Shown: positions 4,498 to 57,109 of the stretch, piece after piece
Layout: every line of letters starts with the position of its first letter
Position numbering within the stretch: position 1 is the first letter of the stretch
Origin: Escherichia phage DCP2
Sequence record: OR780565.1
Strand: one strand, 5' to 3'
DNA length: 64,000 bases
Translations under genes and position numbers: made by a program
The notes under the pieces: generated by a model
Databases searched by the model: none
Told to the model about the DNA's origin: nothing
The model's input: the letters and a program-made list of their open reading frames with translations, nothing else

Positions 4498-4502
4498 ATT
4501 CA

Positions 4503-4528
4503 AGGACTCCTTCGGGAGTCCTTTTTTC
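4503..4528 (+). terminator. intrinsic terminator AGGACTCC-TTCG-GGAGTCCT + T6
   Basis: Perfect 8-bp GC-rich stem, TTCG loop, T-run; directly after soc. Confidence 0.8.
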
Positions 4529-22797: not shown

Positions 22798-22877
22798 TGA
22801 GTAATTTCCACAACGAACACGTGATGCAGTTCTATCGTAATAATCTTAAAACTAAAGGCGTCTTCGGACGCCAGTGA
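22797..22877 (+). CDS. stp: Stp peptide (26 aa)
   Basis: [26 protein letters not shown] matches recalled T4 Stp; TAATG overlap with ndd stop. Confidence 0.85.
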
Positions 22878-24655: not shown

Positions 24656-24660
24656 TTTTA

Positions 24661-24686
24661 GGGAGAGCCTCGGCTCTCCCTTTTTT
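24661..24686 (+). terminator. intrinsic terminator GGGAGAGC-CTCG-GCTCTCCC + T6
   Basis: Perfect GC-rich stem followed by TTTTTT. Confidence 0.85.
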
Positions 24687-28666: not shown

Positions 28667-28696
28667 AGACCCTCCTTTTAAGGGTATTTATTCACA

Positions 28697-29479
28697 TTAT
28701 ACTCTTGGACCATATATTGCTCCAACATTTTGCCATGTCGGTGTAGACCCTATGACGGCATAACCAGCAGCTCCGCCATCGTATTCATATCCTTGACCAC
28801 GAATATTACATCTACCTCCTGCGGAGCCAACTTCACCACCAGACCCGCCGTTGTAGATACCGTTCACAGACCCTGCGCCTGGCGAAGAAATAGTACCAGC
28901 AGTTGCTCCTGATTGCATATCAATAGATCCGCCCGGTGCGCCAAACGGACGACCGCCGCCACCGCCAAAGGTCAATCTCATTCGTGAAAAAGGAGAATAA
29001 TACCCGCCGCCGCCACCGCCGCCGCCGCCAGCAATAGCTCCGCCATTATTAATTCTTAGTCTCCCACCAATATCATTTTGAATACAATGACCCCCAGCTG
29101 AGCCAGGACTATTGCTACCGCCATTCCCGCCACGGCCATACATCGTTACACCATGTATGTTCAACTGAACATATTCATTCGGTGTATCTCCGTACATGAA
29201 GAATAAAGGAACATCTTTAGAATATGATACTAAATCTCCAGTGATATTAAACACTATAGGTGCACTACCTGCCTCAAAACATCTATCTCGGAACCATTGA
29301 CCATTGAAGTTATGGTCTGCTCCAAGCGTGTGAATAATTTCTCTTGAGCGACCTGCAAATTGACTCATCCAGCAAGGAACACCCAATCTTAATTGACCAG
29401 CCGCTTGACTCATCCATCGTTGTCCTGTTTCATTTACAGATGAACTTCCAATCCAACCGGGAACACCAACTACTGCCAT
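28697..29479 (-). CDS. 38: tail-fibre adhesin gp38, glycine-rich T2/T6 type
   Basis: ATG at 29479 (rc) with SD GGAG; poly-Gly motifs (GGGGGGGGG, GGGGG) separated by variable segments; ORF-track start 29491 is TTG. Confidence 0.8.
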
Positions 29480-29511
29480 AATTTTCTCCAAAGGGGCAAA
29501 GCCCCTTGTTG

Positions 29512-32460
29512 TTAGAATTTAAAATAATTACTAATTTTGCGAGCAATTTTAGTGAAGAAAGGCGTTTTCAATTCTTTAATTTCTTCACTCATTTCCTGAA
29601 TAGCCTTAATTAAAAGAGCATTCACAGCAGAGTTAGAAATTGTCAGAACATCAGATCCATCAACTTCAACTTTAGATACAGCTTCCGGTAATTCCTTTTC
29701 AAGGTCCTGAGCAATAATACCAACTTCACGTTTAATAACACTACGGTCTTTAATAGACTTAACTTTATCGTAAATATAAACTTTCAGTCGGCAAACTTTT
29801 TCGACCGCTCCATATTCTAATTCTTCTTTATTAATCTTGAGACGGGAGTCAGAACGAATATACACATCGCTAAAGCTACCATTTCCTGGTGTATAAAAGA
29901 ATCCATCATGATGGAATTCAAACACAGCTTGTGGGTGTCCAGCATCAGGAGAAGCCTCCGTGGATCCGACACGAATGATTGCTTGCCCCCACTGTGATGG
30001 AATACGACGCATACCAAAGTCAACAGCGGTGCTATATCCTTGATTGGTTATAACGCTTCTTGCTTTAAGAATAGGATAATAACAATCCTGTGAAACATAA
30101 CCATGATCAACGAATAATGGAGCTTCTACTCGCCATTGGTTGCCCCAATCACCCGGTTGTCTAGCAATCCATCCAGAACCGTTAATGTGTACACGATCGC
30201 GGTTAACGTTAACCATTGCGATATTTTGTGGATTTAGCGAAATCTCACCATTGTTTGTGATATGTACTGCCGCCTGAGTAGCATAGCTATAAAATGCTAG
30301 CGAATTATCAGCACCACCCTTACCAATATACCAGTTACCAGTCCCGTCTATATCACCGCGAATATGCAAAGAATTACTAGCAGTTGTTGATAATACAATA
30401 GCATCATTAGGTGTATTGATTGTTAACCGACCTGTCATCGTATCACCGCTTTTACCTACGCGAGTATTCAAAGCAGCGTCTAAGTTGGTTGCATTGTTGT
30501 ATTTCTTCCAGATTGAACCAGCAATGTTACCATCAGTGTTCAAGAATGCTGCGCCAGCATAAACTCGGCTTTGTGACATGAATCGGCCAGACGGCAAGAA
30601 ACGCCATGTAGCTAATTCATTAGCTGTAGTTCCAGTAGCGGATAAATCACCTTGAGCAATGATACGATATTCTGAACTAGCAATATCCATACCAGAAGCC
30701 ATAGTAATATTTGTTACAGTGTTTTTCTGTTTTACAATAGGAGCAAACTGGTTTTTATTTGAATCGTCAATGGCCTGATATAATGGCGCAATAGTAGTAT
30801 TCTGATTTGCGTAAGTATTTGAACCAGAACCGCTAGCAGGGCCTTGAATATATGCTCCAGGAGCAATTGAAATTTTCTTATTAGCACCAAGATTAATATC
30901 AGCGGTGATATTTAGCAATCCCCTAAAGTTTTGTTGAGCAGTCCAAGTATGTGATCCGTCTTCAAGAACAACACGGCGACAAGTGTTAGTCCTGTTTCCT
31001 GGATTTCCAGCTATACGCACAACAAAATAACGGTAGTTTGTCTGGGATACAGTACCACGCCAAACCTGAACAGTACGTCCTGTGCCAGTATGTTCGCTAG
31101 GACCAACAGAAAACATAATTAAGTTTCCGTCAATCGTACCCCAATTCATATTTGCTGGCATGTTCTTTATTTTGTTCAAAGGAACGCTAAACATACTACC
31201 AGGGACAAAATCAAAGGTTTGCCAATCTAACTCCGCTAATTGAGCTTTAATACCACCCATACCCAAAGTAATTGGCAGAGAATAAGATGTATATACTTCG
31301 TTCCATGCACCCCACGCACCACCAGTATATGCACGCTCAAAAATACGATCGCGAGTAGTTGCACCCGTTCCTGCGGTAGTGAAACGTTGGAAAATAGCAC
31401 CGCCAGAAGCACGCTGTTTAACTTCCAGCAAACCAACAATAACAGTCGGCAAACCTTCACCTGTAGGACAGTTAATAACGGCATCAGTGCCTAAAATATT
31501 ATATAACCCGGGAGTTTTAAAATCATTCAGATCTCCATCATAGAAAGTCGCTGGTGTGCCATGACCAACCTGCTTCCATTCCTCCCACTTAGGTGCACTA
31601 GCATCCCATGCAGCAGCGAGACAACGAGTATAAACCATACCCATGCGGGTAGTATAACGCTGAGTTCTCGCGTATAAACCACCTTCAAATATTTCTAAAA
31701 ATCCTTGTGCGGCTGATCCTTCTTCTGGATAATGGCGATCAAATGATGCGATTGCGCTTGAACTGTTTCGCCATAAGCCACAATGTTCTAACTCTCCCAA
31801 GCTATCAAGGTCAATCGTTTGTGAAAGTGGACGAGTTGACGCTTGAACATTACGCCACACACCCCATGGACCATCGACGCCATTCCATTTAGCAGATAAG
31901 GAACGAATATAGACGTTACCAGATCTTACAGTATAACGCTGAGTGCCAGCAAATTGGCCGGCCACAAACACTTCTAGTACACCTACGGCATTTTCTTCTG
32001 GGAATTTATTTGCTGGTTGCGCATTTGTTGAAGTAGATTTCGACCAAACACCAAGATATTCTTCAATGGGCCCATACGTATCTAAATTAGCATCAGTAGG
32101 TAATTCGCCATTATTTTTTATAAATGTTGTGCTATTGACATTTATGTCAGATGGAGTTAAGGTAATGTCCTTTGACCCATCAAAAGATATACCATTAATT
32201 TTCCTAGGTGTTTGCAATTTAGTAGCTGTGCTAGAATTTCCAATTAAAGTTCCAGTTATATTTTCTGTAACCTCTAAAGACCCATTTATAGTTCCTCCAT
32301 ATTTTAAACCTAATTCTATAACACTACCTGAGTCATCTTTTGTGAAAATTGTTTTATCTTTTAAGTTTATAGCCAATTCACCTTCGGCTAATACTGAAGC
32401 AGCAGGACGTTGACCTGCAGTTTTGCTTCTTTTAAATTGTATTTGTTTTAAAGTAGCCAT
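29512..32460 (-). CDS. 37: long tail fibre distal subunit gp37 (982 aa)
   Basis: N-terminus [35 protein letters not shown] as in T-even gp37; synteny 36-37-38. Confidence 0.9.
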
Positions 32461-33119: not shown

Positions 33120-33143
33120 TATATGCCCCTTTATTTTAATATT

Positions 33144-33151
33144 ATTTATAA
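33144..33151 (-). promoter_or_regulatory. late promoter TATAAATA (minus strand) for genes 36-38
   Basis: + strand TATTTATA at 33144-33151, ~25 nt upstream of gene 36 start. Confidence 0.6.
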
Positions 33152-33178
33152 AGAAAAAGGGAACCCAAAGGCTCCCTC
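33150..33178 (-). terminator. intrinsic terminator after gene 35
   Basis: Minus-strand RNA AGGGAGCC-UUUG-GGUUCCCU (one G-U) followed by UUUUUCUUU. Confidence 0.5.
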
Positions 33179-38209: not shown

Positions 38210-38217
38210 TATTTATA
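38210..38217 (-). promoter_or_regulatory. late promoter TATAAATA (minus strand) for gene 34
   Basis: + strand TATTTATA 38210-38217, ~35 nt upstream of gene 34 ATG. Confidence 0.65.
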
Positions 38218-42056: not shown

Positions 42057-42081
42057 GGGGACCCTAGAGGTCCCCTTTTTT
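42057..42081 (+). terminator. intrinsic terminator GGGGACC-CTAGA-GGTCCCC + T6
   Basis: Perfect 7-bp stem then TTTTTT, after gene 32. Confidence 0.85.
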
Positions 42082-57084: not shown

Positions 57085-57109
57085 AGGACTCCTTCGGGAG
57101 TCCTTTTTT
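57085..57109 (+). terminator. intrinsic terminator AGGACTCC-TTCG-GGAGTCCT + T6 (same sequence as 4503-4528)
   Basis: Perfect stem, TTCG loop, T-run. Confidence 0.85.

Follow-up and report, generated by a model that had tools for sequence, protein, structure and literature searches.

Organization of the locus

The window, by which we mean the whole stretch of 64,000 nucleotides of Escherichia phage DCP2 (OR780565.1) that was analysed, contains the long tail fibre genes in the order 34-35-36-37-38-t, as established from the ORF map together with Pfam searches. Gene 38 lies directly downstream of gene 37, at the end that encodes an S74 chaperone, and upstream of the holin gene t (Phage_holin_T, 1.8e-117). 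The features listed here are all located between positions 28,697 and 32,460:

29512..32460, minus strand: gene 37, encoding gp37, the 982-aa distal subunit of the long tail fibre; coordinates include the stop codon (ORF, Pfam, annotation of relatives)
29515..29850, minus strand: C-terminal intramolecular chaperone of gp37, residues 871-982 (Peptidase_S74, alignment to 6F45_A)
29491..29507, minus strand: RNA hairpin AAGGGGC-UUU-GCCCCUU, after the stop codon of gene 37 and before the Shine-Dalgarno sequence of gene 38 (folding, about -11 kcal/mol)
29486..29489, minus strand: Shine-Dalgarno sequence GGAG of gene 38, 6 nt 5' of the ATG (sequence)
28697..29479, minus strand: gene 38, encoding gp38, a 260-aa adhesin for receptor recognition; coordinates include the stop codon (Pfam, PDB, AlphaFold2, relatives)
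29354..29479, minus strand: N-terminal domain of gp38 attaching to gp37, residues 1-42 (PF21721), containing the upstream crossover at 29364-29437
29003..29029, minus strand: run of nine Gly, codons 151-159, the motif before HVS2 (GRM2 in Trojet's numbering; sequence, TRF, alignment)
28967..29002, minus strand: HVS2 loop, residues 160-171, with Arg166 encoded by CGA, changed base 28983 (alignment)
28952..28966, minus strand: GGGGG motif (GRM3), residues 172-176 (repeat search; duplication junctions in ZN18 and PYps47T)
28883..28885, minus strand: codon 199, TCG (Ser; Ala in UGKSEcP2), in HVS3 (comparison)

The length of 982 aa given for gp37 in the preliminary description is correct; the gene ends with a stop codon at 29514-29512 on the minus strand, and in phages a51, WilhelmHis and UGKSEcP2 the annotation of its counterparts names the distal subunit of the long tail fibre. 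Pfam recognises gp37_trimer at residues 693-744 and Peptidase_S74 at residues 870-928 (6e-10), and residues 864-967 align to the S16 gp37 chain 6F45_A; the PDB sequence search with gp37 returned no match to a solved T4 gp37 structure. By homology, gp37 would trimerise with the aid of its own C-terminal S74 intramolecular chaperone, which would then cut itself off after about Ser870, where the family motif YIRS/DSRLK predicts autocleavage. One gp38 monomer would subsequently cap the exposed tip of the gp37 trimer via its conserved N-terminal domain.

Late promoters were located on the minus strand at 38210-38217 and 33143-33150, and the promoter TATAAATA upstream of gene 36 would drive genes 36, 37 and 38. 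The G+C content is 51-54% in the 3' half of gene 38 versus about 32% in the flanks. Searches with Rfam at gathering thresholds and with ARAGORN returned nothing anywhere in the window. The three plus-strand ORFs overlapping genes 37 and 38 have no Pfam match; one of them, of 156 aa, is interrupted in UGKSEcP2 and is for that reason considered spurious. Some relatives have a TATAAAT between the gene 38 Shine-Dalgarno sequence and its ATG, but it lies too near the start codon to act as a late promoter of gene 38.

Identity and fold of gp38

Gene 38 extends from an ATG at 29479-29477 to a TAA stop at 28697-28699 on the minus strand. The TTG at 29491 offered by the ORF listing was discarded as a start, since the relatives are annotated with a different one, and a GGAG or AAGGA arrangement before the gene is common to all relatives compared. 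The product matches Pfam GP38 (PF05268) over the whole profile (4e-71, positions 1-218 of 218) and Gp38_N (PF21721) with residues 1-42 (1.3e-19), and finds both solved gp38 adhesin structures in the PDB by sequence (9V85, 1.5e-80; 6F45_D, 7e-49). Its AlphaFold2 model (pLDDT 91.8, pTM 0.82) is matched by Foldseek to the receptor-binding domain of PP01 gp38 (9V85_C; E 5e-27, TM 0.87, rmsd 2.3 Å) and to S16 gp38 (E 2e-22). Residues 1-51 are the same as in the T6-like relatives in the alignment. Five conserved Gly-rich motifs alternate with the hypervariable segments HVS1-4 in an arrangement that aligns with those of T6, T2, S16 and PP01, in agreement with the conserved poly-Gly blocks separating variable segments that were described earlier.

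Taken together with the length of 260 aa, these matches in sequence and model confirm the assignment of gp38 to the long adhesin form made in the preliminary description and place it in the T2/T6/S16 type. The opposite outcome, a T4-type gp38, that is, a short chaperone that is absent from the virion, bears no relation to the adhesin and goes with a gp37 whose own tip binds the receptor, is rejected on account of the same length, the full-length adhesin match in Pfam and the S74 domain in gp37. Homology and modelling show that the C-terminal half of gp38 forms a beta-helix and a polyglycine-II sandwich, with the Gly-rich motifs, including the nine-Gly run, serving as a rigid core and the four hypervariable segments as distal loops that would touch an outer-membrane beta-barrel protein. 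In such an arrangement gp38 would constitute the receptor-binding tip of the mature fibre. The S16 gp37-gp38 tip complex (6F45) and the PP01 gp38 domain (9V85) have the same fold, but both adhesins bind OmpC, their hypervariable loops are unrelated to those in the window, and their Gly run comprises 8 residues rather than 9.

Mosaic origin of the cassette

The two genes have different closest relatives. Gene 38 is 99.0% identical to that of UGKSEcP2 at the nucleotide level (8 nt), whereas gene 37 is about 100% identical to that of phage a51 over most of its length; each of these phages matches one half of the cassette and neither has both. Between 29900 and 29364, and again below 28736, the window and a51 do not differ; in the interval the window follows UGKSEcP2, and the difference map against the two phages places the crossovers at 29364-29437 and about 28728-28736. 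The map shows the locus to be a mosaic, in which a UGKSEcP2-like gene 38 has recombined into an a51-like backbone, with both crossovers located where the gene is conserved, at its 5' and 3' ends. Compared with UGKSEcP2, two loop residues of the cassette are replaced (Q166R and A199S) and the Gly tract differs at three silent positions, and the combination of Ser199, Ala202, Ser213, Tyr231 and Thr246 agrees only partly with the UGKSEcP2 sublineage.

The gene order, gene sizes, five Gly-rich motifs and HVS1-4 set are those of T6, RB3, RB5, RB14, CM8 and WilhelmHis; T6 gp37 is nevertheless strongly divergent in its central part, where identity falls to about 38% across 30450-30870. We read the whole locus, including its mosaic structure, loops, probable Tsx specificity, Gly tract and hairpin, as the cassette that sets host range at the distal end of the long tail fibre in a T6-like Tequatrovirus, with a probability of roughly 0.85. 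The 37/38 tail-fibre pair, by which T6-like E. coli phages recognise their host, is an ordinary and well-studied system: published work covers its architecture, the exchange of modules via the conserved ends of the genes, the scaffold of Gly-rich motifs and what the HVS loops do, and near-identical sequences are present in public databases.

Receptor recognition

Which receptor is the adhesin likely to recognise? The comparison with adhesins of known specificity, proposed as a check in the preliminary description, assigns the gp38 segments to the T6 (Tsx) type, with the HVS1-4 set of T6. Over the C-terminal domain (residues 117-260), identity reaches 96.5% with RB3 and RB5, 95.1% with CM8 and 94.4% with T6 and WilhelmHis, which leaves 5-8 amino acid differences in 144 residues relative to RB3, CM8, T6 and WilhelmHis, residue 166 in HVS2 being among those that differ. 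Identity amounts to just 50-72% with OmpA, OmpC and FadL/OmpF adhesins and to only 50% with T2. Tsx dependence has been documented for T6, RB3, RB5 and RB14 (PMC3157838), for Bas35 WilhelmHis (PMC8594841) and for CM8 (bioRxiv 10.64898/2026.04.02.716166). Because the domain is 94-96.5% identical to those of four experimentally Tsx-dependent phages, the nucleoside channel Tsx is most likely the primary receptor.

The main alternative is that the phage relies on OmpA, or on OmpA together with the LPS core, instead of Tsx, Arg166 and Ser199 having retargeted a T6-type loop set. When ST131 hosts became resistant to HP3 and HP3.1, phages with T6-like adhesins, the mutants obtained were affected in LPS and OmpA and not in tsx (PMC8092219), so that a small number of changes in the loops can be enough to alter the receptor. 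OmpA is the primary receptor of HP3.1 in these hosts, its HVS2 is the same as in the window and the C-terminal domains are 97.2% identical; in addition, PST, which has Arg at position 166 and Ser at position 199, requires both OmpA and Tsx. However, T6 chimeras carrying HVS2 and HVS3 of PST still chiefly recognise Tsx, among adhesins whose receptor has been tested, the four nearest to that of the window depend on Tsx in K-12, and the known OmpA-specific adhesins of M1, FL18, FL08 and AV119 are only 54-72% identical in the C-terminal domain. We consider a primary dependence on OmpA unlikely, though it is the strongest of the competing explanations.

The preferred reading, that of a Tsx-specific adhesin, has practical bearing, as the cassette decides which bacteria can be attacked and its correct reading allows a receptor to be predicted from sequence alone. 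The prediction in the present case, Tsx with a range possibly broadened by Arg166, is of use for choosing or engineering therapeutic phages.

Substitutions in the hypervariable loops

At the HVS2 turn the window has Arg166 in place of the Gln of T6, RB3, RB5, RB14, CM8 and WilhelmHis. DSSP applied to the gp38 model delimits strands at residues 159-164 and 167-172, with Arg166 at the turn of the predicted beta-hairpin. The substitution results from one nucleotide change, at gene position 497, that turns CAA into CGA, and the same change at codon 166 is the sole difference over 1 kb between HP3.1 and its Gln-bearing comparators, Pinarejo or HP3.2; gene 38 of HP3 itself was not found in KY608967 at the coordinates of HP3.1. 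HP3.1 is the product of bioreactor selection on resistant hosts with truncated LPS, is OmpA-dependent and carries two SNPs, one of which changes Gln to Arg in the long tail fibre (PMC8092219). We equate the reported 'Gln9 to Arg9' with Q166R of gp38, because the HP3 gene is split within the Gly tract in RefSeq and codon 166 is the only difference in HP3.1; that phage has an additional mutation in the short tail fibre. The Yersinia phage PST also has Arg at site 166, and plating on Yersinia is better with the HVS2 of PST (PMC3157838). Both HP3.1 and PST, phages with widened host range, use the CGA codon found in the window, although PST has the additional changes M167I and G207I (window numbering), which are absent here.

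By analogy with HP3.1 and PST, Q166R would probably loosen the receptor requirement towards OmpA or LPS-defective cells. Arg alleles occur beside Gln alleles at codon 166 on at least four backgrounds. A tentative suggestion, which we judge somewhat doubtful, is that residue 166 of T6-type adhesins is a recurrent one-step host-range switch, each replacement making Tsx and intact LPS less necessary and favouring OmpA. Gln may then have been replaced by Arg, through the same CAA to CGA change, several times independently in nature (in the window, PM123, a fPS-65-like allele and PST) and once in the bioreactor (HP3.1). The phage in the window would in that event be a natural host-range-up variant, and the pattern of two loop substitutions with silent changes solely in the Gly tract would fit recent positive selection.

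The intercistronic hairpin

The GGGGC-loop-GCCCC hairpin noticed earlier in the gap that separates the stop of gene 37 from the Shine-Dalgarno sequence of gene 38 is indeed present, ends 1 nt before the GGAG of gene 38 and is identical in T6 and a51. Its position is conserved among relatives, folded one sequence at a time, and the stems differ by lineage (GGGGGC/GCCCCC, GGGCC-UUCG-GGCCC, AGAGGGC-UUCG-GCCCUCU); a MAFFT/RNAalifold consensus of the 37/38 intergenic regions, in which loop and stem lengths differ, retained 3 pairs only. Although the hairpin itself is stable, the 81-nt region around it, folded in its entirety, has an unremarkable z-score of -0.46. The window contains 13 perfect GC-rich hairpins of this type versus 0.6 expected from shuffles, and the 37/38 element belongs to the class of stable intercistronic hairpins that characterises T-even phages. 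Tuerk and colleagues reportedly described, in 1988, stable GC-rich hairpins, often with C(UUCG)G, in the intergenic regions of T4. The 37/38 element resembles them in having a short GC stem of high stability located between cistrons; the UUCG loop is found in the T2, RB69-like and L003-type homologues, whereas the copy in the window has a UUU triloop.

A stable GC-rich stem lying exactly between genes 37 and 38, and followed by UUU or UUUU in T6-like phages, could also be seen as a rho-independent terminator or attenuator that cuts transcription of gene 38 relative to gene 37, which would fit the three gp37 chains and one gp38 chain of the solved S16 complex. We find this improbable, more so than the OmpA alternative. 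Only 3 U follow the stem in the window, the RB69-like phages have one and T2 lacks a U-tract altogether, with AAGGA after the stem, and the terminator scan made no call at the hairpin. In every lineage the stem lies 0-1 nt from the Shine-Dalgarno sequence, which points to a role in translation or RNA stability. From its conservation and position, the hairpin would most likely insulate or stabilise the translation start of gene 38 rather than end transcription.

The glycine tract and its repeats

The count of nine consecutive Gly encoded by a GC-repeat tract, given in the preliminary description, stands, with the location corrected from 29007-29036 to 29003-29029. The codons read GGC GGC GGC GGC GGT GGC GGC GGC GGG, and TRF reports a repeat of period 3 at 29004-29029 (8.7 copies, 91% matches), within which perfect runs extend to at most 4 and 3 units. 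The same description had called the tract slippage-prone, a view for which the comparisons give no support in the form of length polymorphism: all T6-like adhesins examined (16 T6-like genes with DNA and further cluster members) have exactly nine Gly, with drift among synonymous codons. Across 120 cluster representatives the Gly run ranges from 4 to 9. Exactly the 786 bases of the query are covered by 37 of the 40 best database matches. Synonymous diversity is higher in the tract than at other four-fold sites (pi 0.34 vs 0.22), with a permutation p of 0.08.

The invariance suggests that the tract would be a structural element kept at a fixed length by selection, and not a variable switch. That it is instead a contingency locus, where slippage adds or removes Gly codons to produce host-range variants of the adhesin, is highly implausible: the 8.7-copy triplet repeat, the frameshift splitting the deposited HP3 gene (RefSeq) within the tract, the roughly 1.5-fold synonymous diversity and the 12% of differences between close gene pairs that fall in the tract are outweighed by the constant nine Gly, the query-length span of most of the best matches, the non-significance of the excess diversity, the shortness of the perfect runs, the packing of Gly runs as polyglycine-II helices in solved structures and the finding of Trojet et al., who screened 220 phages, of no viable T6 without any Gly-rich motif or HVS.

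Rearrangement between different motifs does occur. The 14-nt direct repeat GGCGGTGGCGGCGG is common to the GGGGG motif and the nine-Gly tract 54 nt upstream, and duplications of 51/54 nt by misalignment between Gly-rich motifs are found in two Yersinia phages, ZN18 and PYps47T.

Identity of the adhesin and its predicted receptor

The window is part of a T-even (Tequatrovirus) genome, with genes 36, 35 and 34 lying upstream of the gene encoding the distal tail-fibre subunit gp37. The tail-fibre features, in minus-strand order, are:

38217-38210, minus strand, late-promoter box TATAAATA before gene 34
33150-33143, minus strand, late-promoter box TATAAATA before gene 36
32460-29512, minus strand, gene 37, 982 aa
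29479 (ATG) to 28699-28697 (stop), minus strand, gene 38, 260 aa
next after gene 38, minus-strand order, holin gene t

The spacer between genes 37 and 38 measures 32 nt. The ORF listing starts gene 38 at TTG 29491; the ATG has GGAG 6 nt upstream, the Gp38_N profile match begins at its residue 1, and it is used in all annotated relatives except the Yersinia phage PST, whose recorded CDS begins 21 nt further upstream.

Could gp38 be the short chaperone of T4 type, as the preliminary description had offered for its own refutation? This identity is excluded because the protein matches the adhesin profiles (the whole of Pfam GP38 at 4e-71, Gp38_N at 1.3e-19), the sequences of both solved adhesin structures (9V85, the receptor-binding domain of PP01 gp38, at 1.5e-80; 6F45_D, S16 gp38, at 7e-49) and the adhesin fold. 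When superposed on 9V85_C, the AlphaFold2 model (78 homologues, mean pLDDT 91.8) gives TM 0.87 and an rmsd of 2.3 A, and its match to 6F45_D has E 2e-22; against the PDB it matched no fold besides these gp38 adhesins. gp37 can be aligned with the S16 gp37 tip fragment and carries a Peptidase_S74 intramolecular chaperone domain (residues 870-928), whose family motif YIRS|DSRLK predicts self-cleavage after Ser870. Such cleavage would expose the trimer tip, which gp38 would then cap as in the S16 gp37-gp38 complex (Dunne et al., summarised in PMC12892980).

Aligned with T6, T2, RB3, PST, CM8, WilhelmHis, a51 (nearest relative of gene 37), UGKSEcP2 (nearest relative of gene 38) and IMG/VR relatives, gp38 displays the arrangement known from publications, in which Gly-rich motifs alternate with hypervariable segments (HVS), bearing out the claim that polyglycine blocks separate the variable segments, and its sequence places it in the T6 group.

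Identity of adhesins of known receptor to the C-terminal specificity domain of DCP2 gp38 (residues 117-260)
RB3/RB5: 96.5%, Tsx
CM8: 95.1%, Tsx
T6: 94.4%, Tsx
WilhelmHis (Bas35): 94.4%, Tsx
M1, FL18, FL08, AV119: 54-72%, OmpA
PP01-like: 56%, OmpC
T2: 50%, FadL/OmpF

Since the closest adhesins depend on Tsx (T6, RB3, RB5 and RB14, PMC3157838; Bas35, PMC8594841; CM8, bioRxiv 10.64898/2026.04.02.716166) and several studies find the receptor predictable from gp38 similarity (PMC12032242), homology makes Tsx the most likely primary receptor.

Taken whole, the preliminary observation of an adhesin gene 38, a Gly run and a hairpin held in every part, and the finding is already known: the locus is an ordinary T6-type gp37/gp38 host-range cassette, which is recombinant as such cassettes usually are and shares 97-99% identity with many deposited phages, the exact gp38 and gp37 proteins being already in NCBI. 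Two points alone are mildly notable: the Q166R allele, apparently recurrent, and the conservation of the intercistronic hairpin.

Mosaic origin

No single phage of the collection is the best match over the whole 37/38 module: a51 and P922 each share 97.1% identity with it, and UGKSEcP2 reaches 99.0% over gene 38 alone and only 92.4% over the module. By sliding identity and the difference map, the sequence is identical to a51 from beyond 29900 to 29364 and again below 28736, following UGKSEcP2 between about 29437 and 28728. Because it switches from a51 to UGKSEcP2 and back, the gene 38 cassette has been exchanged through crossovers in the conserved 5' part (attachment domain) and conserved 3' end of the gene, the T-even mode of adhesin swapping (PMC3157838). 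The 37/38 hairpin is the a51/T6 version, not that of UGKSEcP2, in agreement with the 5' breakpoint.

The centre of gene 37 (30050-31060) forms a separate mosaic; over about 30450-30870 it is no more than 36-38% identical to T6, whereas identity to a51 is still 94-100%. The N-terminal attachment domain of gp38 contains a 30-nt direct repeat (29342-29371 and 29387-29416, 77% identity, 45 nt apart) encoding the motif WMSQ-AG twice. G+C content in the 3' half of gene 38 rises to 51-54% against a background of about 32%. Plus-strand ORFs overlapping genes 37 and 38 were rejected as genes: none has a Pfam family match. A stop codon interrupts the UGKSEcP2 copy of the longest, an antisense ORF of 156 aa within gene 37 (31943-32413, plus strand), which is most likely spurious.

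The polyglycine tract

The run of nine Gly is present as described, a few bases from its first placement, at 29029-29003 (codons 151-159, GGC GGC GGC GGC GGT GGC GGC GGC GGG); Tandem Repeats Finder reports 29004-29029, period 3, 8.7 copies, 91% matches. The suggestion that the tract is slippage-prone found no support in its length. Every T6-like gene examined encodes exactly nine Gly with variable use of GGC, GGT, GGA and GGG, 37 of the 40 best database matches span the 786 query bases exactly, and the tract's synonymous diversity (0.34; other four-fold sites, 0.22) is not significantly raised (p = 0.08). Run length does vary between adhesin types, among 120 representatives of all types: 9 (53), 8 (37), 7 (14), 6 (10), 5 (2) and 4 (3). 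Crystal structures show Gly runs as packed polyglycine-II helices, and Trojet et al. obtained no viable T6 from which a Gly-rich motif or an HVS was missing. The best reading of the tract is a structural element whose length is constrained.

Rearrangements other than slippage do result from the Gly-coding DNA. The nine-Gly tract shares a 14-nt repeat with the next GGGGG motif, 54 nt apart. In the Yersinia pseudotuberculosis phages ZN18 (L001, 1501-2331) and PYps47T (P0013), 'GGGGG + HVS2' (17-18 codons) has undergone exact tandem duplication (51 nt and 54 nt), and HVS2 is wholly absent from three database representatives (P0041, P0042, P0046). The three look like the reciprocal deletion, possibly assembly artefacts; duplications and losses together look like reciprocal products of misalignment between Gly-rich motifs. 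The deposited HP3 RefSeq gp38 (P0010) is frameshifted within the tract, giving a 187-aa product, probably because the GC repeat was misread in sequencing.

Loop substitutions

Only five base differences separate the cassette from UGKSEcP2: three silent ones in the Gly tract, none silent elsewhere, and two missense ones, Q166R in HVS2 (window 28983, CAA to CGA) and A199S in HVS3. In the gp38 model HVS2 forms a beta-hairpin, and residue 166 would lie at its turn because the strands span 159-164 and 167-172.

Over 1 kb, the laboratory-evolved HP3.1 is set apart from Pinarejo, and likewise from HP3.2, by this CAA to CGA change alone. Two SNPs separate HP3.1 from HP3, one of them a Gln to Arg in the long tail fibre; HP3.1 gained all LPS-truncated resistant hosts, with OmpA as primary receptor (Salazar et al., PMC8092219). 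We infer that their 'Gln9' is gp38 residue 166, a numbering that fits an ORF beginning in the Gly tract, the site of the frameshift in the HP3 RefSeq gene. Arg likewise occupies residue 166 in PST, whose HVS2 by itself improves plating on Yersinia (PMC3157838). Among the T6-like proteins compared, the nearest neighbour of an Arg allele carries Gln in at least four backgrounds (window/UGKSEcP2, HP3.1/Pinarejo, PM123/WilhelmHis, P0015/fPS-65 type). Given these parallels, Q166R looks like a recurrent host-range-modifying substitution, with a putative effect in DCP2. The directed-evolution phage HP3.2 (L025, OP978391.1 64083-65072) carries an 11-nt deletion in codons 50-54 of gene 38, with predicted loss of the normal N-terminal domain.

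The intercistronic hairpin

The GGGGC/GCCCC hairpin proposed between the gene 37 stop and the gene 38 Shine-Dalgarno sequence is indeed there (mRNA AAGGGGC-UUU-GCCCCUU, 29507-29491, about -11 kcal/mol), ending 1 nt before the latter. In all gp38-adhesin phages examined, a stable hairpin (-9 to -13.5 kcal/mol) ends 0-1 nt before this site, with differing stems.

Stems of the 37/38 hairpin
GGGGC/GCCCC: window, T6, a51
GGGGGC/GCCCCC: UGKSEcP2, L005
GGGGG/CCCCC: RB3, PST, CM8
AGGGGC-UUCG-GCCCCU: L003-type contigs
GGGCC-UUCG-GGCCC: L006, L008 (CUCG loop in L007)
AGAGGGC-UUCG-GCCCUCU: T2

Conservation of the structure while its sequence changes indicates that the hairpin is probably functional. Termination is unlikely, because T2 and the L006-type phages lack a U-tract after it and it was not called in the terminator scan. 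The putative role is to preserve access to the ribosome-binding site of gene 38, or to stabilise the message. Across the window, 13 distinct hairpins are perfect and GC-rich (at least 5 GC pairs, loop 3-6; several with TTCG loops), where block shuffles lead one to expect 0.6; they include 4502-4523, 22857-22872, 24660-24681, 42057-42075 and 57085-57104. They look like the genome-wide stable intercistronic set of T-even phages, and the 37/38 hairpin belongs to this class, which has long been known from T4 and was reportedly described by Tuerk et al. in 1988.

A terminator-like hairpin, GAGGGAGCC-TTTG-GGTTCCCTT and then a T-run (33157-33178, minus strand), lies just past the gene 35 stop, directly followed by the TATAAATA box (33143-33150, minus strand) ahead of gene 36; the pair marks a transcription-unit boundary within the tail-fibre cluster. 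Shortly after the stop codon of gene 38, an ACCCT/AGGGT stem (28669-28685) overlaps the gene t Shine-Dalgarno sequence AAGGAGG and might modulate translation of t.
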